IMG/VR virus record: IMGVR_UViG_3300025401_000648
Length of the DNA: 64,000 nt
Strand: one strand, 5' to 3'
From: a virus
Taxonomy: Duplodnaviria > Caudoviricetes
In this document: positions 44,948 through 62,454 of the stretch, piece by piece
Numbering within the stretch: the stretch's first letter is position 1
Layout: each line of letters begins with the position of its first letter
Notes under the pieces: model-generated
What the model was told of the DNA's origin: nothing
Databases searched by the model: none
The model's input: the letters and a program-made list of their open reading frames with translations, nothing else
Made by a program: the position numbers and the translations under genes

Positions 44948-44997
44948 GCGAGCCATAAATCGCATCATGGTATTTGAGAGCCGTAAATCTCAAGGAG
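44948..44997 (+). promoter_or_regulatory. Tandem RNA hairpins with identical-type loop in DNA polymerase leader
   Basis: GCGA-GCCATAAA-TCGC and TTGAGA-GCCGTAAA-TCTCAA, immediately followed by GGAG SD. Confidence 0.65.
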
Positions 44998-45006
44998 AAA
45001 AATAAT

Positions 45007-47676
45007 ATGAGTTATGTTGATGCCATTTGGGATCGCGAAAAAGACATTGTCAAAGTCATTGAGCGTGATCCAAAACAGGGTAGACTCTATCAAGAGTACA
45101 ATGCCCGCTATCTATTTTATTATCCAGACCAACGAGGAAAATTCAAAAGCATCTTTGGAGAAAACTTATCCAAAGTAACTGCTCGTAGCTGGAAAGAATT
45201 CATTAAAGAACAAAAAATCCATTCTTCTCATAAACTATATGAGAGCGATATCAATCCTGTATTCCGTTGTTTAGAAGAAAACTATCTTGGCAAAGATGCT
45301 CCAAAATTAAATGTAGCATTTTTTGATATTGAGGTGGACTTTGATCCAGAACGTGGCTACGCAAGTCCAGACGATGCGTTTATGCCAATTACTGCGATTG
45401 CTGTCCACCTACAATGGATGGATACTCTAGTATGCCTTGCTGTTCCTCCAAAGACTTTAACCATGGAACAAGCACAAGATCAAGTTAAAGAATTTCCCAA
45501 CACTATACTGTTTGAAACAGAATACGAAATGTTGGATACATTCTTAAATCTAATTGAAGATGCTGATGTGCTAAGTGGATGGAACAGTGAAGGGTTTGAT
45601 ATTCCCTATACTGTTAATCGTGTTACAAAAGTTCTAAGTAAAGAAGATACCCGTAGATTTTGTCTTTGGGGAGCCATGCCAAAGAAACGTGAATTTGAAA
45701 AATATGGAAAAACTGCTGTTACCTATGACCTTGTTGGTCGTGTTCACCTTGATAGTCTCGAGTTGTACAGAAAATATACCTATGAAGAACGCCACACATA
45801 TCGACTGGATGCAATTGGAGAGATGGAAATAGGCGAAAGCAAGACTGTTTACGAAGGTACGTTGGACCAGTTATACAATAATGATTTCCGTAAATTTATT
45901 GAATATAATAGACAAGACTGTGCCTTGCTTGATAAGTTGGATAAAAAGTTAAAATTCATTGACCTTGCTAATACTGTTGCTCACGAAAATACTGTGTTAC
46001 TACAAACTACAATGGGTGCTGTGGCTGTTACAGAACAGGCTATTGTAAATGAAGCACATCACAGAGGTATGATGGTACCAAGTCGCCCCAAACGAGATGA
46101 TACCGTAAGTAATCAGGCGGCAGGTGCGTATGTTGCTTATCCAAAAAAAGGCATCCATGACTACATTGGATCAATGGATATTAACAGTTTGTACCCGTCT
46201 GTGATTCGTGCGCTGAACATGGGTCCAGAAACGATTGTGGGTCAGTTACGCCAAGATTATACTAAAGAAGAAATTGAAAACAAAATGGCCAAGAAAGAAA
46301 GTTTCGCTGGCGCATGGGAAGGTAAGTTTGGCAGTAATGAATATGAATTTGTTATGAACCGAGATCGAAGTCATGATATTATCATTGATTGGGAGAATGG
46401 CGAAACCACTATTATGAGTGGTGCTCAAATTTATGAACTTATCTTTGAAAGTAATAATCCATGGATGCTAAGTGCCAATGGTACTATCTTTACCTATGAA
46501 AAAGAAGGTATCATTCCTGGTTTACTAAAACGTTGGTATAGTGAACGTAAAGAAATGCAGGCCAAGCTCAAAGAAGCAATTAAAGCGGAGAATAAAATTG
46601 AAGAAGAATACTGGGACAAAAGACAACTGGTTAAAAAAATTAACCTCAATAGCCTATATGGTGCTATTCTTAACGCTGGTTGTAGGTTCTTTGATAATCG
46701 TATTGGACAATCCACAACTCTTTCCGGACGTGGTATCGCCCGCCATATGGCCGCAAAGATAAATGAAGTTATCACTGGAGAGTACAACCATATTGGTAAA
46801 AGCATTATCTATGGTGATACTGACTCTGCCTACTTTAGTGCTTATTCATCTTTAAAGAACGAAATTGCCAAAGGTGAAATTCCTTGGAACAAGGACACAG
46901 TGGTTCAACTATATGATACCATTGCTGAAGAAGTAAATTCAACATTCCCAGATTTCATGCTAGAAGCACATCACTGTCCTCGCAGCCGTGGCGATGTTAT
47001 CCGTGCTGGTCGTGAAATTGTTGCTATCAAAGGCCTGTTTATTACCAAGAAGCGTTATGCCGTACTGTATTATGACAAGGAAGGCAAACGCAGTGACGTA
47101 GATGGCAAGCCAGGTAAGATCAAGGCCATGGGCTTGGATTTGAAACGCAGTGACACTCCTGAATTTATGCAGAAGTTTTTGGAAGAAGTTCTTACCAAAG
47201 TACTCAATGGTAGTGAAGAAAAAGAAATTCTAGAGATGATCAGTGAATTCCGTACAGAATTTAAAGCCCGACCAGGTTGGGAGAAAGGAAGTCCAAAACG
47301 TGCCAACAACATTACAGAATATCAAGAAAAAGAGAAGAAATTTGGCAAGGCTAATATGCCTGGTCATGTTAGAGCAAGTATTAATTGGAATACGCTCAAA
47401 AGAATGAATGGTGACAAATACAGTCAGCAAATTGTTGATGGTATGAAAGTTATCGTTTGTAAACTAAAGGGTAACCCCTTGGGATATACATCAGTAGCAT
47501 ATCCTGTGGACGAACTACGGTTGCCTAAATGGTTTCAAGAACTTCCGTTTGATCATGAAGAAATGGAAGCTACCATTATTAACAATAAGATTGAAAACCT
47601 TATTGGCGTATTAGAATGGGACTTGAGCAGTACTACTGAGACTAATACGTTTGGCAACTTGTTTTCGTTTGATTAA
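45007..47676 (+). CDS. Family B DNA polymerase (T4 gp43-like)
   Basis: Exo FFDIEVD, GWNSEGFD; motif A DINSLYPS, motif B KKINLNSLYG, motif C YGDTDS; start moved to ATG 45007. Confidence 0.96.
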   Translation: MSYVDAIWDREKDIVKVIERDPKQGRLYQEYNARYLFYYPDQRGKFKSIFGENLSKVTARSWKEFIKEQKIHSSHKLYESDINPVFRCLEENYLGKDAPKLNVAFFDIEVDFDPERGYASPDDAFMPITAIAVHLQWMDTLVCLAVPPKTLTMEQAQDQVKEFPNTILFETEYEMLDTFLNLIEDADVLSGWNSEGFDIPYTVNRVTKVLSKEDTRRFCLWGAMPKKREFEKYGKTAVTYDLVGRVHLDSLELYRKYTYEERHTYRLDAIGEMEIGESKTVYEGTLDQLYNNDFRKFIEYNRQDCALLDKLDKKLKFIDLANTVAHENTVLLQTTMGAVAVTEQAIVNEAHHRGMMVPSRPKRDDTVSNQAAGAYVAYPKKGIHDYIGSMDINSLYPSVIRALNMGPETIVGQLRQDYTKEEIENKMAKKESFAGAWEGKFGSNEYEFVMNRDRSHDIIIDWENGETTIMSGAQIYELIFESNNPWMLSANGTIFTYEKEGIIPGLLKRWYSERKEMQAKLKEAIKAENKIEEEYWDKRQLVKKINLNSLYGAILNAGCRFFDNRIGQSTTLSGRGIARHMAAKINEVITGEYNHIGKSIIYGDTDSAYFSAYSSLKNEIAKGEIPWNKDTVVQLYDTIAEEVNSTFPDFMLEAHHCPRSRGDVIRAGREIVAIKGLFITKKRYAVLYYDKEGKRSDVDGKPGKIKAMGLDLKRSDTPEFMQKFLEEVLTKVLNGSEEKEILEMISEFRTEFKARPGWEKGSPKRANNITEYQEKEKKFGKANMPGHVRASINWNTLKRMNGDKYSQQIVDGMKVIVCKLKGNPLGYTSVAYPVDELRLPKWFQELPFDHEEMEATIINNKIENLIGVLEWDLSSTTETNTFGNLFSFD

Positions 47677-47731: not shown

Positions 47732-48466
47732 ATGCAAGACTTACTTAAAGATATCGTGTCGCACACAAATAAACTGGGATTTCTTAACATTGTTAAGATC
47801 ACAGGCACTGATGAAGAAACATTAATCGACAGCATGGCTGAAGACCGTACTGTTGTTATGTACGCAAAAACTGCCAATCCTTATCCACAATTAATTGGTA
47901 GTTTTGGTATGCCACAACTTGAAAAATTACGCTACTTGTTAGAAGGTAAAGAATATCAAGAAGATGCCAAGATTGATTTGGTAACTGCTACCCGTAACAA
48001 TGAAACAATTCCGGTTGGACTTCACTTTGAAAACAAAGATGGCGATTTCAAAAATGATTATCGTTTCATGAACAAGGAAGTCATTGACGAAAAATTGAAA
48101 ACAGTTAAATTCAAAGGTGTCAATTGGAATGTCACAGTTAGCCCAAGTGTTAATTCAACACAACGTTTCCAATTCCAGTCAGGTGCTAATACAGAACATA
48201 CACACTTCTTGGCTAAAACAGATGGCGATAAATTGATTTTCTCATTCGGTGATGTAGCAAGTCACGCTGGTGAGTTTGTGTTTGCCACAGGCGTTACAGG
48301 TAAAATTAGCAAGTCCTGGACATATCCAGTTGTGCCTGTACTGAGCATTTTGAAAATTGCCGATGCTAACAATACAAAAATGAGTTTTAGTGATGGTGGT
48401 GCTCTACGTCTTGAATTAGACAGCGGCATTGCTACTTATGAATACATTGTTCCAGCCAAGGTATGA
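47732..48466 (+). CDS. Sliding clamp (gp45/PCNA-like)
   Basis: 244 aa next to PolB, beta-rich, ends GIATYEYIVPA; clamp loader present in window. Confidence 0.65.
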   Translation: MQDLLKDIVSHTNKLGFLNIVKITGTDEETLIDSMAEDRTVVMYAKTANPYPQLIGSFGMPQLEKLRYLLEGKEYQEDAKIDLVTATRNNETIPVGLHFENKDGDFKNDYRFMNKEVIDEKLKTVKFKGVNWNVTVSPSVNSTQRFQFQSGANTEHTHFLAKTDGDKLIFSFGDVASHAGEFVFATGVTGKISKSWTYPVVPVLSILKIADANNTKMSFSDGGALRLELDSGIATYEYIVPAKV

Positions 48467-48837
48467 TAAAGGGTATAAATCAGGGCGGGAGATATATTAG
48501 TGTTACCGGCGGAATGCCGGGCAGTAATTATATTAACAATTACTCTGGCGCACAAGGTATCGGTAACATGCGATTCAATACTTCTACACAAAATGTGGAA
48601 GTATGGGATGGCAATAATTGGATGACCTTACAAACATCTTATGCTACAGTTCAATTAGATAGTGAAGCAACAAGTCTACTAGATTGGGCTAAAGAAAAAC
48701 GTGATGAAGAATGGAAGATGCAGGAGTTGATTAAAACCAATCCTGCTGTTAAAATAGCGTATGACAATGTTTTGAAAGCACAAGAACAATTAAAGATAAC
48801 AACTATATTGAGTACAGATGAAAAAACCACCAGTTAA
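48463..48837 (+). CDS. Hypothetical protein
   Basis: 124 aa, ATGA overlap. Confidence 0.7.
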   Translation: MIKGINQGGRYISVTGGMPGSNYINNYSGAQGIGNMRFNTSTQNVEVWDGNNWMTLQTSYATVQLDSEATSLLDWAKEKRDEEWKMQELIKTNPAVKIAYDNVLKAQEQLKITTILSTDEKTTS

Positions 48838-50356
48838 TTTGACACCATTACAAATGGATTATGCTGTATATTTGCCAGCCATTAGTAGTTTTTATGGCAC
48901 ATATATTGCTAAACAGAGATTAGAAGAATTTATTCCTAAGGATCGTATACCCACTGGGTTTGATCGAGGCATTGAAGGAATGAATTTCTTAAATGAAGAA
49001 GATGGGTACTTTACTTACAAATATGGTCTTTATTCAGCAGGTCACGCAACTCTAGACCTAAATAAGACTATGACAAAAGAAAGTATGATTCAACAACGTG
49101 ATAGAAATAAAACTCTAATACTTGGCGATTCAGGCGGATTCCAAATTGGTAAGGGCGTACTTAAATTTGATTGGTTAAATTTTGAAGGTCCTTCAGCTAC
49201 CAAGGTACGTCAAAGTATTTTAGAATGGCTAGAAGTAACTGCTGATTGGAGTATGATGTTGGACGTTCCTACGTGGGCGTGTGATCATAATCATACAGCC
49301 AAGACTGGACTAAAAACATTTGAAGATTGTTTGGATAAAACAAAATACAATAACAAATATTTCCTAGACAACCGCTTAGGTCAGACCAAGTTCCTAAACG
49401 TGCTACAAGGTGGCGACTGGGATCGTGCTGAACAATGGTATAATGGTGTTAAAGAATTTAGCGATCCTAAGATATGGGGCGACAAAGCCGCTGAAGGCTG
49501 GGCCATGGGCGGTGCTAATATGAGCATGATGGATGTTACTCTTAAACGTCTAATGACAATGAGAGACGACGGCATGCTAGTGGGTAAAGACTGGATGCAC
49601 TTTTTGGGTACAGCACAATTAGATTGGGCCTGCTACTTAACTTTGATTCAACGACAAATTAGGAAACATATCAATGAAAACTTCACCATCTCTTTTGATT
49701 GCGCCTCACCGTTTATCGCAACAGCACACGGACTTGTCTACACAAACCCACAGTTCTCGCCAAAACGGTGGAGTACTATTATGGAAAAAGCCACAGACAA
49801 CAAGGCACTCGCAACAAGCAAGACTCCTTTCCCCTGGGAAAGTGAAATTGGAAGCCGCTTGACAATGGGTGATATCTGCTGGTATCAGCCAGGCATGTTA
49901 AACAAGATTGGCAAAGAAGGCAAAACATCATGGGATAGTTTTAGCTATGCTCTTATGATGGCACATAATGTTAACAGTCACATTTCCAGTGTACAACGTG
50001 CTAATCATTTAGTAGATATCGAATGTACAAGATATCAGCCAAATTGGAAGTTATGGGGAATTGAAGGTAAGAAAGAAAAAGAATACAGTGACTGGGTTCC
50101 ACGTAGGATTTTATACTTTAGCCGTTTTATCAAAGAGCTGTTTGAAACAACATCAAAACAAGAAGCATTTGATATGATTGAAGAAGGTATTGGATTTTTA
50201 CGTAGCCTAGAAGGCACACGTAGCCAAGATGGTATGGCACGTAATACATTCTTTAATTTATTTGAAGAAGAAGCTAAAGATGAAAATGATTTAGACTTGT
50301 CTAATCCCGACGATGACGAATTACGTGCTTTAGAAGAAAGTGTTGACAGTGAATAA
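48818..50356 (+). CDS. tRNA-guanine transglycosylase-like protein (DpdA-type base exchanger)
   Basis: ILGDSGGFQIG, SMMLDVP, LNVLQG, GWAMGG, MHFLG, ISFDCASP correspond to TGT/DpdA barrel motifs; QueE and QueD-like genes nearby. Confidence 0.75.
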   Translation: MKKPPVNLTPLQMDYAVYLPAISSFYGTYIAKQRLEEFIPKDRIPTGFDRGIEGMNFLNEEDGYFTYKYGLYSAGHATLDLNKTMTKESMIQQRDRNKTLILGDSGGFQIGKGVLKFDWLNFEGPSATKVRQSILEWLEVTADWSMMLDVPTWACDHNHTAKTGLKTFEDCLDKTKYNNKYFLDNRLGQTKFLNVLQGGDWDRAEQWYNGVKEFSDPKIWGDKAAEGWAMGGANMSMMDVTLKRLMTMRDDGMLVGKDWMHFLGTAQLDWACYLTLIQRQIRKHINENFTISFDCASPFIATAHGLVYTNPQFSPKRWSTIMEKATDNKALATSKTPFPWESEIGSRLTMGDICWYQPGMLNKIGKEGKTSWDSFSYALMMAHNVNSHISSVQRANHLVDIECTRYQPNWKLWGIEGKKEKEYSDWVPRRILYFSRFIKELFETTSKQEAFDMIEEGIGFLRSLEGTRSQDGMARNTFFNLFEEEAKDENDLDLSNPDDDELRALEESVDSE

Positions 50357-50825
50357 ATTTACAGATTTTCCAGAACAACCTAGAGTAATGCGTGACGCAG
50401 AGGGCGAAGCATATTTTAGTATTATGCTGGCCCAAATTGCAGATTTCAATCCTAACGAAATCATTGCTGTGGCACGTAGCGGATTTAGTTATGCTATGTG
50501 GGTAGCGCAAATGCTTAAATTACCATTAGGTGCTTATTGGGCAGAGCGAGGTGAACTGGTCACCGGCAGTGATCCAGAACGTATTGTATTTGTAGATGAC
50601 AATATTGTATCTGGTAGTACATATAAAGATACAAAACTTTTTATGGAACGGTATTATCCCAATACTGAATGGCGTTGGGCTGTATTATTTACTGACTGGC
50701 ATACTCCGAAAGAAATATGCGATGAAGTCATTCAAGGTGTAAAACTTCCTTACTTTGCTGAAGAGCCAATGTGGGGTAGCAAAAAAATTAGTCAAGATTA
50801 TGGCATAAGGTACAGAGATGAATAA
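50340..50825 (+). CDS. Type I phosphoribosyltransferase-like protein
   Basis: IIAVARSG and IVFVDDNIVSGST PRPP-binding loop; start may be GTG 50349. Confidence 0.75.
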   Translation: MLTVNKFTDFPEQPRVMRDAEGEAYFSIMLAQIADFNPNEIIAVARSGFSYAMWVAQMLKLPLGAYWAERGELVTGSDPERIVFVDDNIVSGSTYKDTKLFMERYYPNTEWRWAVLFTDWHTPKEICDEVIQGVKLPYFAEEPMWGSKKISQDYGIRYRDE

Positions 50826-51234
50826 TATTAGAATCGCATTTGATATGGACGGGGTATTACTACCCGATTTTCATAAAATTCCTCAGTTAAATGATGATGA
50901 ATTTTTCGAGCATACATTATATGCTAGGCCCATGTTTTCGCCAGTTGGTGTTTTTGATGTGGTCACTGCCCGTACAGAAGATCGTCGGCCAGTTACACTA
51001 GAATGGCTCAAACAGTTATCCACTCCGCCACAAAATTTGTTTATGAAGCCTGTGAATAGTGATGAAACTCCAGCTGAATACAAATATCGTAAGTGTATTG
51101 AAGAAGGTTATAAAATTTTTGTAGAAAGCGAACCCAGTATTGTTTTAGAAATGCGTGAAATGGCATTGATTGATAACACAGACTTAATGGTTATTCATTT
51201 TTCTGGTTTCGTTTCAAGAGGATTTGAATTGTGA
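50818..51234 (+). CDS. HAD-superfamily phosphatase
   Basis: IAFDMDGVL (DxDG), VVTAR, KYRK, FVES. Confidence 0.75.
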   Translation: MNNIRIAFDMDGVLLPDFHKIPQLNDDEFFEHTLYARPMFSPVGVFDVVTARTEDRRPVTLEWLKQLSTPPQNLFMKPVNSDETPAEYKYRKCIEEGYKIFVESEPSIVLEMREMALIDNTDLMVIHFSGFVSRGFEL

Positions 51235-52112
51235 AAAGTCTAATCGTAGGTATGGGGATTGGCAATCTCTACAAAGCAGTATTAACTAATTTAGGACACG
51301 AAGTTGTTACTGTGGATATCAATCCATCAGCAAATGCTGACTATCCCACAATTGGAGACGCTTGCCTTAAGCACAAACATTTTGATACCGCACACATTTG
51401 TACTCCAAATTATCTACATAATATTCATGCTAGGTCTGCGGCCAATTGTGCTAAAATTATATTTGTGGAAAAACCAGGTGTTGCTAATGCCAAAGATTGG
51501 TTGGAGTTAGTCAGCTATTTTCCTAAAACAAGATTCATGATGGTTAAAAATAACCAATGGCGAGATAATATTGAACGTATGCGTGAATTGATGATTGACT
51601 CAGATTCAATATCAATTGATTGGTTAAATCAAGATCGTGTGCCCAATCCTGGAACATGGTTTACCACAAAACACTTGGCATATGGCGGAGTTAGTAGAGA
51701 TTTAATGCCTCACTTGTTGAGCTTGTTTATGGCTTTAGACCCAGAATACATGACATCACGTGAATTAGAAAGATCGATTGACCGTAAATGGAAATTGTGT
51801 GATCTCACAAAGACAGATTATGGCAGAGTTAACGAACATGGCACATATGATGTCGATGACTACTTTAAATTAAATTTCATGTGTAATGATCGAGCTTGGA
51901 GTTTGACCGCAGACTGGCGTACTCTAAAAGAAGATCGTAGAGCTATTACATTTAATTTAAAAGATGGCGGTGCTGAAGTTATTGAATTAGGATTATGTCC
52001 AGAAGAAGCATACCAAGTCATGATCAAAGATGCTATTGATAATTTAGAAAATAATTTATTTTGGAATAACCAATTACTACAGGATTACTGGATTCACAGT
52101 AAGATAGAATGA
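51231..52112 (+). CDS. Gfo/Idh/MocA-family oxidoreductase
   Basis: IVGMGIG, ICTPNYLH, IFVEKPG, GGVSRDLMPH. Confidence 0.82.
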   Translation: MKSLIVGMGIGNLYKAVLTNLGHEVVTVDINPSANADYPTIGDACLKHKHFDTAHICTPNYLHNIHARSAANCAKIIFVEKPGVANAKDWLELVSYFPKTRFMMVKNNQWRDNIERMRELMIDSDSISIDWLNQDRVPNPGTWFTTKHLAYGGVSRDLMPHLLSLFMALDPEYMTSRELERSIDRKWKLCDLTKTDYGRVNEHGTYDVDDYFKLNFMCNDRAWSLTADWRTLKEDRRAITFNLKDGGAEVIELGLCPEEAYQVMIKDAIDNLENNLFWNNQLLQDYWIHSKIE

Positions 52113-53002
52113 ACGTAAGACTACTACATACTACCGGAAACGGAATATTTGAAGAAACCATTTGGGAAAAGCCTGAACCTTCTGATAACGAAATTGAAGT
52201 ACGTGCTGTTATGACAGGTGTTTGCCGAAGCGACATCGACATGATGATGGGCAATTTTGGGCCACTACCATTACACATGCAGGGGCATGAAGGATTGGGC
52301 ATAGTAACCAAAGTTGGTAGTGATATCACTGATATTGCCATTGGAAATTTTGTTGCTACACGCGGTGAACCCGCTTATGCAGATTTTTATAATGTACGCA
52401 ACACTGAATACACATGGGTTCCTGAACTACACCCTCGCTATATTATTGAGCCAGTAGCCTGCGGTATCAATATTATAGATCAAGCATGGCAACAAATTAG
52501 AGAAAGATCTAATGGAAAAATACTAATCATAGGCAGTGGATTCCTTGCCTGGGTGGCGTTTAATAGATTAAAATCACAACGATCAAATGCCAGTGTTGAT
52601 GTATTAGGATCAAGTAATTTAGAATTATGGGGAGATCAACTGCTGTTAGGAACCAGTGAAAGTTATGATGTGGTCATTGACCTAACTGGAAAATATGCGT
52701 TAGGCTTAGACATTAAACTAAACAACAACGCAATAATTATAGACGGCGTTGGCAAAGCAATTAGTAGAGAGGAAGCACAGCAACAACTTTGGAAAGCCTG
52801 TACTACAATTCGTCCAAGTCCTCGAAATCCAAAATTTCATCAATGTATGAAAGAAGCAGTTTGGATGATTGAAAATTATCATTTAGCTATTGACAATTTC
52901 TGGACTAAAGCGTATAATAGAGATACAGAATGGCAACAAGCGTTTGCGGATGGTAAGGATCGTCCAAACGGTTATAGCCGAGGTTACATTGTATGGGATT
53001 GA
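52109..53002 (+). CDS. Zn-dependent medium-chain (sugar/alcohol) dehydrogenase
   Basis: GVCRSD, GHEGLG, EPVAC, IIGSGFLA. Confidence 0.82.
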   Translation: MNVRLLHTTGNGIFEETIWEKPEPSDNEIEVRAVMTGVCRSDIDMMMGNFGPLPLHMQGHEGLGIVTKVGSDITDIAIGNFVATRGEPAYADFYNVRNTEYTWVPELHPRYIIEPVACGINIIDQAWQQIRERSNGKILIIGSGFLAWVAFNRLKSQRSNASVDVLGSSNLELWGDQLLLGTSESYDVVIDLTGKYALGLDIKLNNNAIIIDGVGKAISREEAQQQLWKACTTIRPSPRNPKFHQCMKEAVWMIENYHLAIDNFWTKAYNRDTEWQQAFADGKDRPNGYSRGYIVWD

Positions 53003-53532
53003 ATACTGAAGAACGACAAGGAGTCGTTTACTTTACAGGTTATGAAGTAGAACATACTATTTGTCATGGTATGTATACATTGTTTGTTGTAGGCACACCT
53101 CCTGTAGAAGATATCCTACGTATTGCCAACGACTCACAAGCAATGTTAGACGAGTCTAAACGTATCAAACATATCTACTTTGGTACTAGCCAAAGTTTTA
53201 ATCCTCAAGGTATTACATTTCAAGAATACCGGGCATGGGACGATGTCATTCTTCCATGTTTAAAAGCAGACTACTGGGTGACATTAGACTTTGATGTCAA
53301 ACACGCCGAAGGAGTGCTCGAATCTGGATATTCTGAATATCCTAGATTTGTTCCGATGATTAGTGTTAAGCTACCTTACATTAATCAATTTAACTATAAC
53401 GCCACACTTAAACTGGACGACCTCACATGGGGTAAGACTAATCCGGGTGTGTGGACTCATCAACTACATGATCTAATGAGTAAAGACAAATATACTTACT
53501 GGGATCAATATACACAGGACACAGAACTATGA
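52993..53532 (+). CDS. Hypothetical protein in DNA-modification cluster
   Basis: 179 aa, tightly coupled to neighbours. Confidence 0.7.
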   Translation: MGLNTEERQGVVYFTGYEVEHTICHGMYTLFVVGTPPVEDILRIANDSQAMLDESKRIKHIYFGTSQSFNPQGITFQEYRAWDDVILPCLKADYWVTLDFDVKHAEGVLESGYSEYPRFVPMISVKLPYINQFNYNATLKLDDLTWGKTNPGVWTHQLHDLMSKDKYTYWDQYTQDTEL

Positions 53533-53894
53533 CAACAAATACATATATCAAAATTCGCACAGAATTTGAAGGTTTTCATTTTTACCCCGACGCAGGTAAA
53601 ATTGATCCACGCATTGAATTTTTAGAACACGAACATCGCCATATGTTCAAGGTCGAAGTTAAAATCTCTGTCACGCATTTGGATCGTGAACTAGAGTTCT
53701 TCCTTGTCAAATGGGCACTACAAGATTTTATCCGAGCAGGCGACCAAAATCATAAGTCCTGCGAAATGATAGCAACAGATATTTTGCAGGACCATTTAAT
53801 TCCTCTTTACGGACCAAATCGATCTTATGAGATCGTAGTATCCGAAGATGGGGAATCAGATGGTATTGTGGAATATACTCCGTCTTTTCATTAA
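53529..53894 (+). CDS. QueD/PTPS-like T-fold protein
   Basis: FEGFH, HEHRH (like HGH), SCEMIA (like TAENIA), VSEDGES (like V.ET) spaced as in QueD. Confidence 0.55.
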   Translation: MTTNTYIKIRTEFEGFHFYPDAGKIDPRIEFLEHEHRHMFKVEVKISVTHLDRELEFFLVKWALQDFIRAGDQNHKSCEMIATDILQDHLIPLYGPNRSYEIVVSEDGESDGIVEYTPSFH

Positions 53895-53920
53895 CTCCTA
53901 TTTTAACAGGAAAATTTAAA

Positions 53921-54184
53921 ATGGCATTGCCAAACTATATTACAAAAACTCTTCAACTGAAGCCCGAAGTCAACAAGATCTTTAATGATCTAGATCGTTG
54001 GTTGGATCACTGTAGGATTAACCTACTGCCCTATAACCCTGCGGACTTGTATCGTAGTCCAGAGTATAGGAAGTTCCAACAGGAGCAAGAGTACTTAGAA
54101 CGTAAAGCACGTCGTGAACGTGAAGGACGTCCAGAGCCAGTTAAACAACGCGAATTCCGCGGCAACTTCAAGCCACGGTATTGA
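53921..54184 (+). CDS. Hypothetical protein
   Basis: 87 aa, SD CAGGA. Confidence 0.7.
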   Translation: MALPNYITKTLQLKPEVNKIFNDLDRWLDHCRINLLPYNPADLYRSPEYRKFQQEQEYLERKARREREGRPEPVKQREFRGNFKPRY

Positions 54185-54185
54185 T

Positions 54186-55253
54186 ATGGCAAATATCTTT
54201 CTAATCGATTTAGAAAGTGTAGAAACTAGGTACACGGGGCAATGGAAGTCCCATGTACCTAATATCTTACGAAAGGCAGGACACGATGTTAGAGTTATTT
54301 CCGGACCTGGAGATATTCCTCCAGCAACTACGCCAGGAGCTTTTCTTAACTTTGGTGGCACCAATATATACAAGGCTAATCAAGTTGAACAGATTAGTCG
54401 TTTGTTTTGCTCCGGAGCAGTCAAGCCTGGCGATCATTTTTTGTTCACAGATGCTTGGCATCCCGGAATCATAAATTTAAAATACATGAGTGAACTACTG
54501 GGAATCCCAGTAACTACACACGGCTTATGGCATGCTGGCAGTTATGATCCTCAAGATTTTCTTGGACGTCTTGTAGGAGATAAGCCATGGGTAAGACATG
54601 CTGAGAAAAGTTTTTATGAAGCATTTGATCATAACTACTTTGCCACACAGTTCCATATTGATATGTTCTGTGAAAATTTGTTAGATCGTAAATCTGATAT
54701 CACCATCTATTTTGCCAAAGATAAAATTGTTCGCACAGGTTGGCCCATGGAGTATATGGATGAATTATTGGGCGGAGGAGGCCCGTATGCCAAAGACAAC
54801 CTAATTGTATTCCCGCACCGTATTGCTCCAGAGAAGCAGGTAGAAATTTTTAGAGATTTGGCTAATCATTTACCAGAATATGAATTTGTTGTTTGCCAGG
54901 ATCAATCACTGACTAAGAATGAATACCATACCTTGTTGAAACGTGCTAAGATTGTGTTCAGTGCTAACCTACAGGAAACACTAGGTATCAGTTGCTACGA
55001 AGGTGCTATGGTAGATACTATTCCCATGGTGCCTGATAGATTAAGCTACACAGAAATGTATTATGATACTTTCAAATATCCAAGCAAATGGACTGAAAGT
55101 TTTGAAGCATATCAATCATATCGTCCGCAACTTTGCTATAAATTGGTCAATTACTTAAAAAATTACGAAAAGTTTTTACCACAACTACACAAACAAACTC
55201 AAGACTTAACAGAAAGATTTTTCTCATGTCAAAACTTGCTGACAAAATTTTAA
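54186..55253 (+). CDS. GT-B fold glycosyltransferase
   Basis: FPHRIAPEKQ and QETLGISCYEG (ExxGxxxxE) C-domain motifs; start moved to ATG 54186. Confidence 0.75.
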   Translation: MANIFLIDLESVETRYTGQWKSHVPNILRKAGHDVRVISGPGDIPPATTPGAFLNFGGTNIYKANQVEQISRLFCSGAVKPGDHFLFTDAWHPGIINLKYMSELLGIPVTTHGLWHAGSYDPQDFLGRLVGDKPWVRHAEKSFYEAFDHNYFATQFHIDMFCENLLDRKSDITIYFAKDKIVRTGWPMEYMDELLGGGGPYAKDNLIVFPHRIAPEKQVEIFRDLANHLPEYEFVVCQDQSLTKNEYHTLLKRAKIVFSANLQETLGISCYEGAMVDTIPMVPDRLSYTEMYYDTFKYPSKWTESFEAYQSYRPQLCYKLVNYLKNYEKFLPQLHKQTQDLTERFFSCQNLLTKF

Positions 55254-55705
55254 ATTTGCTCGACCAAATGGGTCGTAAACGTGTTGTACTAGATCGAGAA
55301 GGAAATGAACCTTATCTTATACGCTATTATGTCTTTCTCAAAGACCGAAAGTTATTTCCATTTAATGTGTTTTTACACAAGTTTCTTAAGTCAGACCCCG
55401 ATGATGTGCATGATCATCCTTGGCCTTACGCTACACTAATTTTACGAGGTGGATATTACGAATGGATTCCAAAATTTAATGACAAAAAAGAAATGATTGG
55501 TGAAATTCGTAAATGGAGAGGCCCTGGTCATTTTCGTATATCTCGACCATCAAGCTATCATCGTATTGAATTACAAGAAGGAGTTACTCCTTGGACTCTG
55601 TTTATGCCTGGACCACAACAGCGTGAATGGGGATTTTTAGTTAATAATCAGTGGATACATAATGAACAATATTTGAAGGAAAGAAATGAACAAGCTCATA
55701 CTTAA
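55226..55705 (+). CDS. Cupin-like protein
   Basis: HDHPW..TLILRGGYYE...YHRIEL metal-binding double-stranded beta-helix pattern. Confidence 0.55.
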   Translation: MSKLADKILNLLDQMGRKRVVLDREGNEPYLIRYYVFLKDRKLFPFNVFLHKFLKSDPDDVHDHPWPYATLILRGGYYEWIPKFNDKKEMIGEIRKWRGPGHFRISRPSSYHRIELQEGVTPWTLFMPGPQQREWGFLVNNQWIHNEQYLKERNEQAHT

Positions 55706-56186
55706 TGATCAGGAGTACAAAGGCCTTGTTGGCAAAATATGTCGGGATATCGCCGTTAGCGGTTGGCGCCCGGATTATATTGTAGGCATCGGTCGTGGTG
55801 GGTTGTTGCCTGCTGTCATGATCAGTCAATATTTTGGTATCAAAATGTGTAGTTTAGATATCAGTCTGCGTGATGGTGGCGATACTGTTAGTAATTTTAG
55901 TATGAGTGAAGATGCGTTTAGCGGCAAAAAAATTCTAATCGTCGACGACATCAACGATACAGGAGCTACAATTAACTGGCTAATGAATGACTGGCGTAGC
56001 TCATGCCAACCCGAGCATCAGGTATGGGACGAAGGTGTGTGGAATGACAATGTTAAATTTGCTGTGGTTGTGGATAACTGGAGTAGCGCATGTCAAGTCA
56101 CTATGGATTTCACAGGGATGGAAGTAAACAAATCAGAACAAGACGTATGGATTGAATTTCCTTACGAGGAATGGTGGACCAAATGA
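55686..56186 (+). CDS. Purine phosphoribosyltransferase-like (Gpt-like)
   Basis: PDYIVGIGRGGLLPA, ILIVDDINDTGAT, WIEFPYE. Confidence 0.85.
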   Translation: MNKLILNDQEYKGLVGKICRDIAVSGWRPDYIVGIGRGGLLPAVMISQYFGIKMCSLDISLRDGGDTVSNFSMSEDAFSGKKILIVDDINDTGATINWLMNDWRSSCQPEHQVWDEGVWNDNVKFAVVVDNWSSACQVTMDFTGMEVNKSEQDVWIEFPYEEWWTK

Positions 56187-56593
56187 AAAAGACTGTACAG
56201 GATAAAATCTTTGATGGGCCGGATCATATCGATTGGGCTGATACCCCATGGACTGACTTAGAACGTGATGATTTTCATGTGGCTATCTACAGAGACAAAT
56301 ACCCCTGTACACCCGGACATTTATTGTTTGTGCCTAAATACAATACCATAGGAGTACTAAATGATGCGTTTGAAGATGCTGTTAGATACGGCAAAAAAAT
56401 GGTGGAAACCGGAGAATGGGACGGTTACAATATTGGACTTAATATGGGCCAGGCTGCTGGACAAACTATCAACTGGCCTCATGTCCATCTTATACCACGT
56501 AGGCGAGGTGACGTCGACGATCCGACGGGCGGCGTCAGAAATACAATACCAGGCAAAGGCAATTATAAATCGCCGGACTTTAGAGCAGATTAA
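56183..56593 (+). CDS. HIT-family nucleotide hydrolase
   Basis: DKYPCTPGHLLFVPK, YNIGLNMGQAAGQTINWPHVHLIPR. Confidence 0.9.
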   Translation: MKKTVQDKIFDGPDHIDWADTPWTDLERDDFHVAIYRDKYPCTPGHLLFVPKYNTIGVLNDAFEDAVRYGKKMVETGEWDGYNIGLNMGQAAGQTINWPHVHLIPRRRGDVDDPTGGVRNTIPGKGNYKSPDFRAD

Positions 56594-56636
56594 TCCTATT
56601 GAGTATGAATGGAGCTCTAATAACCATACAGGATTT

Positions 56637-57029
56637 ATGGCGCAAACTATTGGACCAGCCTATGGATATTATAATACAGCAGTTGGTAGTCAAGCAGGTC
56701 ATAGTTATCAACCTAATAATGTACAGTTTAATTCCAGTGGGCCTAAGACTGTGTTAACCATTACCGGAGACGGTGATGTTATTTGGACAGGAAAACCCAG
56801 TGAGGCCGCAGACATTCTAGTACGTAGTTTTCAAATGTCTGTAGAAGATGCCAAGGGTGTTACTAAAGCCGCTCGTCGCAGATATTATGCTCTAGCCTGT
56901 CGCAATATTTTGAGCAAAGCAGAAGATATGGAATATGAAGAGTTCCTTGCTTTCCTAAATAGAGAAGTGTATAATAGAGAACGTAAGGTCATTTTAGATT
57001 CATTAAAAGGAGAAGACAATGCTACATGA
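56637..57029 (+). CDS. Hypothetical protein
   Basis: ORF track 56361; 5' part shadows the HIT gene, so start moved to ATG 56637. Confidence 0.6.
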   Translation: MAQTIGPAYGYYNTAVGSQAGHSYQPNNVQFNSSGPKTVLTITGDGDVIWTGKPSEAADILVRSFQMSVEDAKGVTKAARRRYYALACRNILSKAEDMEYEEFLAFLNREVYNRERKVILDSLKGEDNAT

Positions 57030-57249
57030 TTCAATTAAAAATACATATAAAGAAATGGTCATTAAAGAAGATTCAGGATTTCGACTGGTGTTGAAGAAAC
57101 ATGAAGTGTTGAGTCCTAAAGGTCTTTTTAGTGTTAATTTAGAACAACAAAATTTACGAGATGGTGAAATCTCAGATGTTTCAACATATAACTTCTTTAT
57201 GACCAAAGAAGAAATTCAAGCACTAGCACATGGATTAACACATGAGTAA
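57019..57249 (+). CDS. Hypothetical protein
   Basis: 76 aa, SD AAGGAG. Confidence 0.7.
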   Translation: MLHDSIKNTYKEMVIKEDSGFRLVLKKHEVLSPKGLFSVNLEQQNLRDGEISDVSTYNFFMTKEEIQALAHGLTHE

Positions 57250-58093
57250 GATTAAAATAGCAGAACTATTTTATAGTATACAGGGAGAAGGACGTTATAT
57301 GGGCGTACCAAGTATCTTCTTAAGGACTTTCGGCTGCAATTTCCGCTGTGCAGGATTTGGTATGCCTAAAGGGCAATTGAGCGCAGAAGCAGAAGACATT
57401 GCCACCGTAGTGCATTTATATAACAAATATGAAGATTTGCCGCTAGTATCAACTGGTTGTGATAGTTATGCTAGTTGGCATCCTGATTTTAAAAACCTAA
57501 GTCCTATGTTGACTACGGATGCTATTGTTGAACGCATCATGGAGATATTGCCCTTCAATGAGTGGCGCAATGAACATCTTGTTATCACAGGTGGTGAACC
57601 GCTATTAGGTTGGCAACGTGCTTATCCTGACCTGTTGGATCATCCTAAAATGTCTAAACTAAAAGAAATTACATTTGAAACAAATGGTACTCAAAAGTTA
57701 ACACAAGATTTTAAAAATTATCTTGGAGTATGGAATGGCTTACCTAGGCAAAAACGAGAAATTACATTCAGTGTAAGTGCTAAGTTGCCAGCAAGTGGTG
57801 AAAAGTGGGAAGAAGCTATTCTTCCAGAAGTTGTTTGTGAATATGAAGAAGTAGGCACAGCATATCTTAAATTTGTGGTAGCCACAGAAGAGGACGTTAA
57901 AGATGCAGAACAAGCAATTGAACAATATAGAGCGGCTGGCTTTAAAGGTCACATATATCTTATGCCTGTTGGCGGTGTTGAGTCTGTTTACAATCTCAAT
58001 GCTAAATCCGTTGCCCTTGCCGCAATGAAACGCGGCCTACGTTATAGTGATCGACTACAAGTGCCCTTGTTCAAGAACGAGTGGGGCACTTGA
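57242..58093 (+). CDS. queE: 7-carboxy-7-deazaguanine synthase-like radical SAM enzyme
   Basis: ELFYSIQGEG, FLRTFGCNFRC...GCDS, VITGGEP, FETNGT, LMPVG, RLQVPLF; ~30-aa insert before third Cys. Confidence 0.85.
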   Translation: MSKIKIAELFYSIQGEGRYMGVPSIFLRTFGCNFRCAGFGMPKGQLSAEAEDIATVVHLYNKYEDLPLVSTGCDSYASWHPDFKNLSPMLTTDAIVERIMEILPFNEWRNEHLVITGGEPLLGWQRAYPDLLDHPKMSKLKEITFETNGTQKLTQDFKNYLGVWNGLPRQKREITFSVSAKLPASGEKWEEAILPEVVCEYEEVGTAYLKFVVATEEDVKDAEQAIEQYRAAGFKGHIYLMPVGGVESVYNLNAKSVALAAMKRGLRYSDRLQVPLFKNEWGT

Positions 58094-61297: not shown

Positions 61298-62380
61298 ATG
61301 GCAGAGCAAATTAGCACTAATCGCACAGTTACGCCAAATGATGCTAAACGTAGCATTCGTAAGTGTATCAAAATCCAGCGCCCTGTATTCATGTGGGGGC
61401 CTCCGGGTATTGGTAAATCCGATATTGTTAAACAAATTGGCGACGAACAAGGACGTGAAGTCATTGACGTTCGTTTGAGTCTTTGGGAACCTACTGACAT
61501 CAAAGGTATCCCCTATTACAACAGTAATTCAAATACCATGACTTGGGCGCCGCCTGCCGAATTGCCCACAGATCCAGAATCAACTGCTATTTTGTTCCTA
61601 GACGAACTTAATTCCGCGGCTCCTGCTACGCAAGCCGCGGCTTTCCAATTGGTATTGAATCGCCGTGTTGGTACATATCAATTGCCTAAAGGTGTTAGTA
61701 TTGTTGCCGCAGGTAACCGTGAAACTGACAAGGGTGTTACTTATCGTATGCCTGCTCCATTGGCCAATCGTTTTGTACACTTGGAACTCAAGAGCGATTA
61801 CGATGACTGGTTGGAATGGGCTGTTAACAACAAGGTTCACGAACAAGTTGTTGGCTATGTTGGCTTTGCTAAACAGGATTTGTACGACTTTGATCCTAAG
61901 AGTGCAAGTCGTGCGTTTGCTACTCCACGTAGCTGGAGTTTTGTCAGTGACCTGCTTAAAGATGACGACCTTTCAGAAGGCACATTGACCGATTTGGTTG
62001 CTGGTGCTATTGGTGAAGGTCTTGCTGTTAAGTTTATGGCTCATCGTCGTGTTGCCAAACAGATGCCCAAACCAGAAGATATTTTGACAGGCAAAATTAC
62101 TAAGTGTGATATCAAAGAAATCTCAGCAATGTATTCTTTGACTGTGTCCATGTGCTATGAGCTCCAATCCTCTGACCAAAAGAAGGTCAAGAATTGGGAT
62201 AATATGGCAGATAACTTCTTTGCGTTCATGATGGATAACTTCCCAACTGAATTGGTTGTTATGGGTGCTAAGGTAGCATTGACCAGCTATAACTTGCCGT
62301 TTGATGCTAGTAAATTGAAGCATTTTGATCGCTTCCATGAGAAGTACGGCAAATATATTATCCAAGCAATGGAGAATTGA
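61298..62380 (+). CDS. MoxR-like AAA+ ATPase
   Basis: WGPPGIGKS, LFLDELN, AAGNR, PLANRF, TPRSW. Confidence 0.88.
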   Translation: MAEQISTNRTVTPNDAKRSIRKCIKIQRPVFMWGPPGIGKSDIVKQIGDEQGREVIDVRLSLWEPTDIKGIPYYNSNSNTMTWAPPAELPTDPESTAILFLDELNSAAPATQAAAFQLVLNRRVGTYQLPKGVSIVAAGNRETDKGVTYRMPAPLANRFVHLELKSDYDDWLEWAVNNKVHEQVVGYVGFAKQDLYDFDPKSASRAFATPRSWSFVSDLLKDDDLSEGTLTDLVAGAIGEGLAVKFMAHRRVAKQMPKPEDILTGKITKCDIKEISAMYSLTVSMCYELQSSDQKKVKNWDNMADNFFAFMMDNFPTELVVMGAKVALTSYNLPFDASKLKHFDRFHEKYGKYIIQAMEN

Positions 62381-62381
62381 T

Positions 62382-62403
62382 AAAAAGCCCCTAGGGGCTT
62401 TTT
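62382..62403 (+). terminator. Bidirectional-type intrinsic terminator
   Basis: AAAAAGCCC-CTAG-GGGCTTTTT. Confidence 0.85.
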
Positions 62404-62405
62404 AT

Positions 62406-62434: not shown

Positions 62435-62454
62435 AGTATTTTAGAAGGGTAAAA

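Follow-up and report, generated by a model that had tools for sequence, protein, structure and literature searches.

An operon beside a phage DNA polymerase gene as a candidate system for replacing DNA guanine with a 7-deazaguanine base that may carry a sugar

A freshwater jumbo phage carries, adjoining its own DNA polymerase gene, an operon that we somewhat favor as a system by which the phage replaces the guanine of its DNA by a 7-deazaguanine base, possibly with a sugar added. The operon lies on the + strand at positions 48818-58093 of the window, by which we mean the whole 64,000 nt stretch of viral DNA that was analyzed. Every gene named there by a first-pass annotation is real and at its assigned position. 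Two general claims of that annotation, that the genes form a 7-deazaguanine DNA-modification cluster around a TGT/DpdA-type enzyme and QueE and that the additional enzymes go beyond any characterized pathway, are likewise supported. Most adjacent gene pairs overlap, by 4-28 nt, and three are separated, by 1, 26 and 43 nt. The features are as follows.

44974-47676, +: family B DNA polymerase (PolB; PF03104 and PF00136, Pfam matches in an identical contig)
47732-48466, +: predicted sliding clamp, 244 aa (Atlas language-model features, PCNA_N and gp45 sliding-clamp clusters, 0.93-0.98)
48818-50356, +: DpdA-like DNA-guanine transglycosylase, 512 aa (TGT fold; catalytic D104, D149, D294)
50240-50272, +: putative clamp-interaction peptide RNTFFNLFEEE, DpdA residues 475-485
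50340-50825, +: PRTase1, type I phosphoribosyltransferase, accessory (PF00156 at 6.4e-5, 22.7 bits, below cut-off; PRPP loop VFVDDNIVSGST)
50818-51234, +: HAD-type phosphatase, accessory (phrog_415 at 1.1e-6; DMDGV motif)
51231-52112, +: Gfo/Idh/MocA NAD(P) oxidoreductase, optional (PF01408, 28.7 bits, above cut-off; EKP motif)
52109-53002, +: zinc-type medium-chain dehydrogenase, optional (PF08240, ADH_N, 41.3 bits, above cut-off)
52993-53532, +: u179, conserved core protein of unknown family (partial β/α barrel; AF2 pLDDT 75)
53529-53894, +: DpdL-type T-fold protein, 121 aa, proposed CDG decarboxylase (LEHEHRHMF, fitting LxxxHRHxF)
53921-54184, +: conserved small protein, 87 aa (position kept in most relatives; no family match)
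54186-55253, +: GT4-like (GT-B) glycosyltransferase, for which 54186 is the more likely start (invariant EX7E, E264 and E272; HRxxxxK, H211-R212...K217)
55226-55705, +: 3-His cupin of a family annotated 'cysteine dioxygenase' (phrog_4786 at 1.9e-37; invariant H62, H64, H112, HxH...H)
55686-56186, +: PRTase2, xanthine/guanine-type phosphoribosyltransferase (PF00156, 49.6 bits, above cut-off)
56171-56593, +: HIT-family nucleotide hydrolase or transferase (PF01230, 37.8 bits, above cut-off; NCBIfam HinT, ATP adenylyltransferase)
56637-57029, +: 130-aa gene, probably the true extent of an open reading frame at 56361-57029
57242-58093, +: QueE, 7-carboxy-7-deazaguanine synthase, radical SAM (phrog_2076 at 1.6e-52)

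To separate core from accessory genes, the operon was compared with 160 related loci from viruses, with cultured phages and with islands in bacteria. The core comprises u179, DpdA, the glycosyltransferase, DpdL and QueE. Genes for FolE and QueD accompany it, in the cluster or elsewhere, and the core set is also found in PA5oct, ACP17 and BUCT-ZZ01. The accessory genes are the Gfo/Idh/MocA and Zn-dehydrogenase pair, which is recurrent and optional, and PRTase1 with HAD, which are confined to the nearest relatives of the window. All four are missing from a strain that is 99.8% identical from DpdL onward.

DpdA and its clamp-binding peptide

The 512-aa protein had no match in Pfam, PHROG, NCBIfam or PDB-sequence searches. 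When its AlphaFold2 model (mean pLDDT 91.9) was compared with the PDB by Foldseek, the best 50 matches listed were all tRNA-guanine transglycosylases (E about 1e-7, probability 1.0). Alignment with E. coli Tgt by hhalign (87.6% probability) places D104, D149 and D294 opposite Tgt D89, D143 and D264. Across 57 diverse homologs, D104 and D294 never vary, and at least 90% retain D149. The fold and the three catalytic aspartates bear out the initial call of a TGT/DpdA-like protein, which we propose to be a distinct DpdA lineage. Homologs reside in que-gene clusters of PA5oct (with QueE), ACP17 (QueD, FolE and QueE), BUCT-ZZ01 and Vibrio 2.275.O (QueF, YhhQ, QueC, Gat and FolE). An experimental hint comes from the relative PA5oct, whose DNA resists restriction enzymes acting at G sites and is a target of nucleases recognizing modified G (PMC12191111). 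We regard 7-deazaguanine modification of DNA by DpdA as very probable.

PolB ends in NTFGNLFSFD, a putative clamp-interaction peptide whose motif is kept in 74 distinct relatives. Language-model features and a trimer model (pLDDT 90) indicate that the 244-aa protein is the sliding clamp, and in PA5oct the gene that follows PolB occupies the syntenic position. New here is the finding, read from the sequence, that the disordered tail of DpdA (pLDDT <50 over residues 469-497 of the model) bears the putative C-terminal clamp-binding peptide of the polymerase. This motif is kept in 113 distinct DpdA tails, and the PolB/DpdA peptide pairs co-vary across three phage lineages, including PA5oct and Vibrio 2.275.O (NTFGNLFSFD/NTFFNLFEEE, HFDSLFGW/SFNSLFDVD and NNTDLFDW/NNNDLFGW).

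A model of the DpdA-clamp complex scored 0.68, versus 0.11 for the best of three controls; the mark that it reaches admits 51 of 78 solved complexes and 2 of 108 mismatched pairs, and because clamp-peptide complexes have already been solved, the good score may stem from resemblance to them. Model runs share at least 51% of contacts, with a partner pLDDT of at least 47. The modeled contacts join DpdA residues 472-485 to clamp residues 38-42, 123-130, 196-199, 222-224 and 239-244, which we take to form the interdomain loop and the C-terminal pocket. Peptide conservation, co-variation and the complex model make clamp tethering of DpdA likely. In the proposed route DpdA would dock on the clamp through the peptide that the polymerase also uses, and would put the deaza base in place of guanine just after replication. 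That the peptide is common to DpdA and the polymerase also argues against action of the TGT-like protein on tRNA, the outcome named earlier as fatal to the DNA-modification reading.

Synthesis of the base

In the proposed pathway, FolE and QueD, neither of which is encoded in the window, would convert GTP to CPH4, and QueE would then yield 7-carboxy-7-deazaguanine (CDG). The QueE assignment is supported by the PHROG match and by the five best NCBIfam matches, which are all QueE models (best 8.1e-17; all under curated cut-offs). A tblastn search of the 64-kb window found no folE, queC or queF, confirming the first-pass annotation, and no queD. Near-complete relatives encode FolE, QueD and QueE and no real QueC; in complete relatives the cluster includes FolE, and QueD is encoded 50-60 kb from it. 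Because no QueC was found, synthesis would end at CDG or 7-deazaguanine rather than at preQ0.

The T-fold protein had been labeled QueD-like. We rejected its assignment as QueD: the LxxxHRHxF motif is present, the QueD cysteine is missing and the protein aligns with DpdL of phiST and ACP17, making it DpdL-type. The literature proposes that the DpdL class removes the C7 carboxyl, and this protein would accordingly be placed at the decarboxylation of CDG to 7-deazaguanine. Published heterologous tests failed to demonstrate decarboxylase activity of DpdL; ACP17 dpdA and dpdL alone yielded no dDG in E. coli. For u179, profile searches returned no family match. Its nearest annotated folds are QueE, weakly (Z 6.7, TM 0.58), and hhalign against QueE gave 0.5% probability. 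Homologs occur in PA5oct and ACP17, and we infer some role for u179 in the pathway.

The glycosyltransferase and accessory enzymes

Atlas features place the glycosyltransferase near GT1/GT4, and PF00534 and PF13439 match it weakly and below threshold. At least seven phage lineages, among them PA5oct, Phosso, ACP17, X1, BCSR5 and BUCT-ZZ01, have its gene beside that of DpdA or DpdL, as do bacterial islands. The same adjacency occurs in chromosomes of Pelagibacterium, Devosia, Azospirillum and an alphaproteobacterium; the Pelagibacterium arrangement is DpdA-YhhQ-GT, without FolE and the T-fold protein. Co-occurrence across phages upholds one part of the first-pass proposal, that the glycosyltransferase belongs to the system; the dehydrogenases and the PRTase1-HAD pair are optional. 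The enzyme most likely puts a sugar on the inserted base, a precedent being the GT4 enzyme HuiG, whose substrate for N-glycosylation is a 7-deazaguanine base (bioRxiv 10.64898/2026.04.15.718813). 7-Deazaguanine has no obvious hydroxyl acceptor, and by analogy we would guess N2 or another atom. That the final product bears a sugar is a tentative suggestion, with slightly more to be said against it than for it.

Gfo/Idh/MocA and Zn-dehydrogenase genes always come as a pair at the same position (80 of 80 loci); the former has a PA5oct homolog (34% identity) and relatives of the latter occur on 166 viral contigs. PRTase1, present in only three of the 160 loci and without a homolog in cultured phages, is always accompanied by HAD. 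The task of both pairs is probably to modify the sugar or the donor that supplies it; in an alternative put forward by the first-pass annotation, the redox, PRTase and HAD set may build an unusual sugar donor. PRTase2, whose best NCBIfam match is a xanthine PRTase (2.5e-9), most likely recycles freed guanine to GMP. The cupin, whose family is widespread in unrelated phages, and the HIT protein may also contribute.

Alternative readings and known systems

One route suggested by the first-pass annotation would have CDG inserted into DNA, its C7 carboxyl reduced to a hydroxymethyl by the two dehydrogenases and the product glycosylated like glucosyl-hmC. The operon does combine QueE and DpdA with a glycosyltransferase and two NAD(P) oxidoreductases, the Gfo-ZnDH-u179 trio is kept in PA5oct, and phage records with a Zn-dehydrogenase homolog come almost exclusively from PA5oct-like phages that bear DpdA (11 PA5oct-group records, besides which an uncultured fecal phage record gave one weak partial match, E 5e-6 at 28% coverage). 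However, most relatives keep the glycosyltransferase without either dehydrogenase, a pattern that makes the acceptor independent of them; the near-identical strain described above has an identical glycosyltransferase and neither dehydrogenase. No ATP-dependent carboxylate-activating enzyme is present, and the T-fold protein belongs to the proposed carboxyl-removing class. The route is thus unsupported and very improbable. We also doubt strongly, if a shade less, that the PRTases make a deaza ribonucleotide (as do ToyH/ToyI and TubE) that the host converts to a dNTP for the polymerase to incorporate, leaving the TGT-like protein a side role in repair, proofreading or tRNA modification. A PRTase with HAD does have a parallel in toyocamycin biosynthesis, as does a PRTase acting on CDG in tubercidin biosynthesis, and the clusters of PA5oct and BUCT-ZZ01 also keep PRTase2. 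Yet a DpdA with all catalytic aspartates and a clamp-docking peptide fits DNA work at the fork, PRTase1 and HAD occur only in a few close relatives, ACP17 and bacterial islands combine DpdA and glycosyltransferase with no in-cluster PRTase, and the scanned cluster genes include no dedicated kinase or dGTP-degrading enzyme. Cyanobacteria make biopterin glucoside by a route resembling the set of FolE, a T-fold enzyme, two reductases and GT4, and the host of BUCT-ZZ01 is Synechococcus elongatus PCC 7942. A glycosylated tetrahydrobiopterin-like cofactor, made as auxiliary metabolism apart from DpdA and QueE, is nevertheless extremely improbable: the catalytic Cys that PTPS and QueD require is missing from the T-fold protein, the reductases are optional, and in Pelagibacterium the glycosyltransferase accompanies DpdA with neither FolE nor the T-fold protein present.

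A plain dDG or dCDG system as in phiST, with the glycosyltransferase, cupin, HIT, PRTases and dehydrogenases co-located for unrelated jobs (host takeover, nucleotide salvage, surface glycans), is rather unlikely. It would fit the scattered cupin family, the dispensability of the four-gene unit and the lack of an obvious sugar acceptor on the base. Co-location alone is, however, a hard explanation for a glycosyltransferase with invariant catalytic motifs that adjoins DpdA/DpdL in very distant phages and in bacterial islands without the other genes, and the failure of ACP17 dpdA and dpdL to yield dDG also speaks against it. The known case for comparison is Cellulophaga phage phiST, whose DNA is 100% dDG (PMC10516641) and which has DpdL, QueE, FolE and QueD but no glycosyltransferase, whereas the cluster described here has one. 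A sugar is therefore not needed for base exchange itself; if our preferred reading of base exchange followed by glycosylation is true, this phage would add to the phiST-type chemistry a DNA modification not yet identified, a sugar-bearing 7-deazaguanine.

Layout of the replication module

The replication module of this virus spans 44.9-60.3 kb of the window on the + strand, and most of its adjacent genes overlap by 4-28 nt. The layout is syntenic with that of the Pseudomonas jumbo phage PA5oct.

Gene order of the replication module (+ strand) and coordinates of the genes discussed
Start: PolB, 244-aa protein, 124-aa protein, 512-aa DpdA, PRTase1, HAD phosphatase, Gfo/Idh/MocA oxidoreductase, Zn-dehydrogenase
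Middle: u179, 121-aa T-fold protein, 87-aa protein, glycosyltransferase, cupin, PRTase2, HIT
End: 130-aa protein, 76-aa protein, QueE, RNase H
48818..50356, +, DpdA, 512-aa protein with a tRNA-guanine transglycosylase (TGT) fold
52993..53532, +, u179, 179-aa protein
53529..53894, +, DpdL, 121-aa T-fold protein
54186..55253, +, GT, GT4-like glycosyltransferase
57242-58093, +, QueE

A 223,706-bp freshwater bog-lake metagenome contig (L006) matches the window at 100% identity, and no fewer than 20 metagenome runs from freshwater or lakes, all as assembled contigs, contain at least half of the sampled words of the stretch. Megablast of the region found nothing in the phage collection.

The gene set described in the first-pass annotation was confirmed, apart from the label 'QueD-like' for the T-fold protein. 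This protein has Leu where QueD has its catalytic Cys and yields no PF01242 match. Its motif LEHEHRHMF conforms to the LxxxHRHxF signature that separates DpdL, a proposed decarboxylase of 7-carboxy-7-deazaguanine (CDG), from QueD with its CxxxHGH (Cui et al., 2023; PMC10516641). On the strength of the HRH motif and the missing Cys we call the protein DpdL; it can be aligned to phiST DpdL, and tblastn retrieved the named DpdL proteins of ACP17 (2e-12) and phiST (2e-9). Decarboxylation of CDG is a proposed activity throughout this family, phiST included (Cui et al., 2023; PMC10516641).

QueE matches phrog_2076 at 1.6e-52, and its five best NCBIfam matches are QueE models, the best at 8.1e-17, under the curated cut-offs. 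Three Cys residues are invariant in its clade (C32, C36 and C73): the first two form CX3C, and the third comes about 36 residues later. The usual QueE cluster motif is CX3CX2C, and the alignment suggests that here the cluster-binding motif contains an inserted loop.

That folE, queC and queF are missing from the window, as originally reported, was borne out, and queD was likewise not found there. Three relatives with 94-99% complete genomes encode FolE inside the cluster and, 50-60 kb from it, a bona fide QueD (PF01242 above cut-off). All three lack a genuine QueC, which argues that the pathway ends at CDG or 7-deazaguanine (DG), as in phiST, whose DNA is modified entirely to 2′-deoxy-7-deazaguanosine (PMC10516641).

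Among the remaining genes, the Gfo/Idh/MocA protein matches PF01408 with 28.7 bits (cut-off 24; N-terminal Rossmann domain) and carries the EKP motif as VEKPG. The Zn-dehydrogenase matches PF08240 with 41.3 bits (cut-off 23.5), and GVCRSD and GHEG are present, as in a GroES-like ADH_N domain with Cys/His zinc ligands. A 222-aa open reading frame (56361-57029) overlaps the HIT gene in another frame; the identical contig calls a 130-aa product instead (56637-57029), for which no family match was found. Downstream of the replication genes, at 61298-63708, lie genes for a MoxR-type AAA ATPase (360 aa) and then a DUF2201/VWA-like protein (417 aa), both kept in sister contigs. A perfect sigma-70 consensus (TTGACA, 17 nt, TATAAT; 12/12) is located at 52890-52918 (+), within the 3′-terminal part of the Zn-dehydrogenase gene, and precedes the start of u179 by 75 nt; the total from the promoter and terminator scan was not above shuffled expectation.

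The transglycosylase and its putative clamp-docking peptide

DpdA could be identified only by folding, because direct family searches with Pfam, PHROG, NCBIfam and PDB sequences, and with a profile (A1) against the PDB, returned nothing. The protein contains GDSGGFQ, and its AF2 model (mean pLDDT 91.9; alignment of 57 diverse homologues) has the TIM-barrel TGT fold, followed by a helical C-terminal segment that gives way to disorder. Every one of the 50 best-ranked PDB matches listed for this model is a tRNA-guanine transglycosylase (E about 1e-7, probability 1.0). In an hhalign comparison with E. coli Tgt (probability 87.6%), D104, D149 and D294 fall on D89, D143 and D264; all 57 homologues have D104 and D294, and at least 90% have D149. 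The zinc-subdomain motif CxCxxC of tRNA TGT is absent from the DpdA sequence, a difference that sets DpdA apart from tRNA TGT proper, though not from DNA-acting relatives.

Among viral structures, the neighbours of DpdA include phiST DpdA3, a Vibrio nt-1 protein and phage proteins annotated as transglycosylases. When BFVD was searched with Foldseek, phiST DpdA3 (M4SLA5) scored E 9e-4, and the Motura 'TGT' (3e-12) and the Vibrio nt-1 protein (1e-10) were closer. The hhalign probability for DpdA and phiST DpdA3 is 73.7% over only 84 columns. Because this relation is weak, we treat DpdA as a distinct lineage. The lineage is very large: at least 7,984 clusters at 90% identity score E 0.001 or better (8,000 candidates scored), with 889 representatives at 50%, and PA5oct, ACP17, BUCT-ZZ01 and Phosso are cultured members. 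DpdA is linked genomically to 7-deazaguanine synthesis by QueE and DpdL within the operon, and its homologues lie in que clusters of PA5oct, Vibrio 2.275.O, ACP17 and BUCT-ZZ01. Two BUCT-ZZ01 proteins were considered and dismissed: one of 447 aa does not resemble DpdA, and one of 174 aa does not resemble u179.

Base exchange by DpdA on DNA is putative. Hints that DNA is the substrate come from the G-site restriction resistance of PA5oct and from a presumed clamp-docking peptide that DpdA has in common with the polymerase. The window PolB ends in NTFGNLFSFD, and DpdA residues 475-485 read RNTFFNLFEEE, which falls in the only disordered stretch of the DpdA model (residues 469-497). The FxxLF core is kept in 113 distinct DpdA tails, whose flanks are free to vary, and in 74 PolB C-termini. 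The putative docking peptide co-varies between PolB and DpdA across lineages.

Paired peptides of PolB and DpdA in two relatives
PA5oct: PolB C-terminus HFDSLFGW; DpdA tail SFNSLFDVD
Vibrio 2.275.O: PolB NNTDLFDW; DpdA NNNDLFGW; both at the C-terminus

The 244-aa protein has no Pfam, PHROG-function or PDB-sequence match. Its language-model neighbours are PCNA_N and gp45-slide_C clusters at 0.93-0.98, features that identify it as a predicted sliding clamp, and a three-copy model reached pLDDT 90. When DpdA residues 450-512 were modelled together with three copies of the clamp, the complex scored 0.68, compared with 0.11 for the best of three controls; this mark is attained by 51 of 78 solved complexes and by 2 of 108 mismatched pairs. 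Contact agreement between runs was at least 51%, and partner pLDDT at least 47. The modelled contacts join DpdA 472-485 to clamp residues 38-42, 123-130, 196-199, 222-224 and 239-244, which can be read as the interdomain loop and the C-terminal pocket. The score may reflect likeness to solved clamp-peptide complexes, which are well represented among structures.

Given the complex model and the covariation, we consider it likely that DpdA docks on the sliding clamp. Such docking argues that DpdA acts at the fork, with DNA rather than tRNA as its substrate, and it offers a possible route by which a post-replicative exchanger could modify DNA completely or nearly so. We found no paper on a clamp-binding DpdA.

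A portable core with optional cassettes

Across 25 homologues, the GT has an invariant EX7E (E264-x7-E272) together with H211, R212 and K217. EX7E and HRxxxxK motifs are typical of GT4 enzymes, in which the basic residues serve the NDP phosphates in the C-terminal domain. Pfam matches fall below cut-off (PF00534, 0.0066; PF13439, 0.024) and a profile search against PDB sequences was empty; the language-model neighbours in the Atlas are GT1/GT4 clusters at 0.96-1.0. In a 356-kb relative (L066), a partial second match to the GT N-terminus (10620-10880) precedes the full gene (13010-14101) by about 2 kb; it may be a remnant, or the gene may be split or interrupted.

The GT gene occurs near DpdL in Phosso, Xanthomonas X1 and BUDD, and Burkholderia BCSR5. 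It also accompanies a DpdA homologue beside a resolvase in bacterial chromosomes.

Bacterial loci with DpdA and the glycosyltransferase
L199:4092-7038, Pelagibacterium mangrovi: DpdA, Vut_1/YhhQ-like transporter, GT; adjacent serine resolvase
L204:5381-11329, alphaproteobacterial metagenome-assembled genome: QueD, GT, 537-aa protein, DpdA, DpdL, QueE; adjacent serine resolvase

The recurrence of DpdA and GT in distant phages and in bacterial chromosomes identifies DpdA and the glycosyltransferase as the stable pair, and the bacterial loci are candidates for a new Dpd-like island. DpdA-GT adjacency is seen in three further bacterial chromosomes (L198, L200 and L201), and the island of the QueD/DpdL/QueE type holds large unknown proteins of 537 and 700 aa.

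To separate core from accessory genes, we surveyed 160 IMG/VR loci, 80 retrieved with the Zn-dehydrogenase and 80 with DpdA. The recurrent order is PolB, clamp, DpdA, a variable slot, u179, DpdL, 87-aa protein, GT, FolE in some, cupin, PRTase2, HIT, QueE and RNase H. The Gfo/Idh/MocA and Zn-dehydrogenase genes are inseparable and fill the slot between DpdA and u179 in 80 of 80 loci, and are missing from most loci found through DpdA. PRTase1 and HAD are restricted to three of the 160 loci (L016, L031 and L056), all close relatives of the window, and no homologue of either was found in cultured phages. The dehydrogenase label requires at least 2-4 changes on the DpdA tree, and most dehydrogenase-bearing loci have a second, deeply divergent DpdA type.

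One strain has a GT 100% identical to that of the window and DNA 99.8% identical from the DpdL start on, and does without PRTase1, HAD, Gfo and the Zn-dehydrogenase. Its PolB-to-DpdA segment is just 77-79% identical, and this drop places a recombination breakpoint at the u179/DpdL border, where homing endonucleases may drive mosaic exchange. Genes for such endonucleases break up the module in relatives.

Endonuclease genes in relatives
L007:6338-7018, NUMOD3 protein between clamp and DpdA, sister strain
L001:8009-9691, Hef-like endonuclease that splits the PA5oct polymerase

The sigma-70 consensus within the Zn-dehydrogenase gene also lies near the border between variable slot and core. In alignment A4, u179 falls into two types, the window type with Gfo and Zn-dehydrogenase (63-87% identity, N-terminus MGLNTEERQ) and one without this pair (36-56%, MKRDY), a split that could reflect either function or linkage only.

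Taken together, the distribution of genes points to u179, DpdA, GT4, DpdL and QueE as a portable five-gene core. The cupin was given little weight because its family is spread over unrelated phages; its profile search against PDB sequences was empty or marginal, and phiST cupin gp032, considered as a relative, is unrelated. Foldseek searches of the PDB and AFDB with u179 gave nothing clear. We also considered u179 as a cysteine-less QueE paralogue. Two structure searches ranked QueE first among annotated folds, yet at background level (Z 6.7, TM 0.58), and profile-profile comparison gave a probability of 0.5%, with no sequence relation; we retain this reading as no more than a lead.

Proposed chemistry and relation to known systems

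We tentatively propose a replisome-coupled DpdA-GT4 pair, in which a clamp-held DpdA would swap G for 7-deazaguanine behind the fork and GT would add a sugar to that purine. DpdA would insert DG, possibly CDG, and the GT4 enzyme would then glycosylate it on the DNA. The conservation of Asp149, a base-binding residue, hints that the 2-amino group is still free when DpdA binds the base, and this speaks for glycosylation following insertion. The best match of PRTase2 is a xanthine PRTase; the enzyme could salvage the guanine set free by the exchange as GMP and so replenish GTP, from which the pathway starts. Differences in the sugar from strain to strain would come from the optional dehydrogenase and PRTase/HAD cassettes, and the bacterial islands beside resolvases would represent a new Dpd-like self-marking system.

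The first-pass annotation had proposed a new hypermodified 7-deazaguanine, a general reading that is plausible, made by reduction of the C7 carboxyl to a hydroxymethyl group that is then glycosylated. This route is not supported, as the dehydrogenases are optional among GT-bearing loci and hence cannot create the GT acceptor. The Gfo and Zn-dehydrogenase genes are linked to u179 in the window clade and in PA5oct, with translational overlap with u179, and their products probably tailor the sugar, its donor or the base. A role as a substitute for FolE was rejected, since both are often found within one cluster. Action of GT on hydroxymethyl-pyrimidines is likewise unsupported: the thymidylate synthase gene just downstream of the window end, on the same contig, encodes a canonical ThyA above curated cut-offs with the dUMP-specifying Asn, and a hydroxymethyl-pyrimidine pathway is not evident.

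Replacement of guanine by 7-deazaguanine is a known anti-restriction strategy. The DpdA-GT4 reading, if true, would provide the first glycosylated purine in any natural DNA, and would bear on restriction and CRISPR evasion, on END-type modified-DNA sensors and on sequencing errors in environmental viromes. We found no paper on glycosylated deazaguanine in DNA.

Of the named systems, phiST (DpdA3, DpdL, FolE, QueD, QueE; PMC10516641) is like the window in having no QueC, a DpdL with LxxxHRHxF, QueE and a distant TGT-fold enzyme, and in a cluster that adjoins the replicative polymerase. Its DpdA3, in contrast, is a weakly related protein of 259 aa, compared with 512 aa here, with no clamp peptide reported, and phiST has MazG and an AAA_18 ATPase in place of glycosyltransferase, u179 and PRTase.

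PA5oct (Wroclawvirus) shares PolB, clamp, small gene, DpdA (41% identity), GT (42%), a DpdL-like protein, PRTase, QueE and RNase H, and its DpdA tail, too, has a peptide resembling its own PolB C-terminus. Its contiguous Gfo, Zn-dehydrogenase and u179 genes lie 27 kb from the cluster rather than inside the operon, no cupin or HIT homologue was detected in the cluster, and its T-fold motif is HFH rather than HRH. PA5oct DNA behaves as G-modified, being resistant to restriction at G sites and restricted by END nucleases that sense modified G; that study reports no modification chemistry (PMC12191111).

ACP17 (Acidovorax) carries the five-gene core in a compact polymerase-side operon (QueD, FolE, u179, DpdA, GT, DpdL, QueE), with a shorter u179 (132 aa) and without dehydrogenases, cupin, PRTase or HIT. 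Cui et al. (2023) named the DpdA and DpdL of this phage, and expression of dpdA and dpdL alone produced no deoxynucleoside of 7-deazaguanine (PMC10516641); the five-gene core offers a possible reason for this failed reconstitution. The BUCT-ZZ01 cluster comprises QueE, a xanthine/guanine PRTase, QueD, FolE, DpdA, DpdL and GT.

Enzymes of the same families as those in the window tailor 7-deazaguanine bases in the huimycin, dapiramicin, toyocamycin and tubercidin pathways. Toyocamycin synthesis uses a PRTase to attach ribose-5-phosphate to preQ0 and a HAD phosphatase to take the phosphate off again; in tubercidin synthesis a PRTase acts on CDG, with the phosphate removed afterwards. Across these two pathways the PRTase is accompanied by a HAD or Nudix enzyme. 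HuiG (huimycin/dapiramicin), a PF13439 GT4 enzyme, glycosylates the 7-deazaguanine base with UDP-GlcNAc (bioRxiv 10.64898/2026.04.15.718813). These actinomycete pathways belong to secondary metabolism and lack DpdA, whereas the window enzymes are encoded alongside a DNA transglycosylase in the replication module of a phage. The T4 alpha- and beta-glucosyltransferases are, like GT, GT-B enzymes associated with a non-canonical base pathway and acting after replication, and we count variable sugar chemistry as an arms-race device as a further likeness. The T4 base, however, is a pyrimidine with a hydroxyl acceptor (5-hydroxymethylcytosine), and the T4 enzymes have no sequence relation to GT. The new elements here are the fixed partnership of DpdA and GT4 and the predicted tethering to the clamp.
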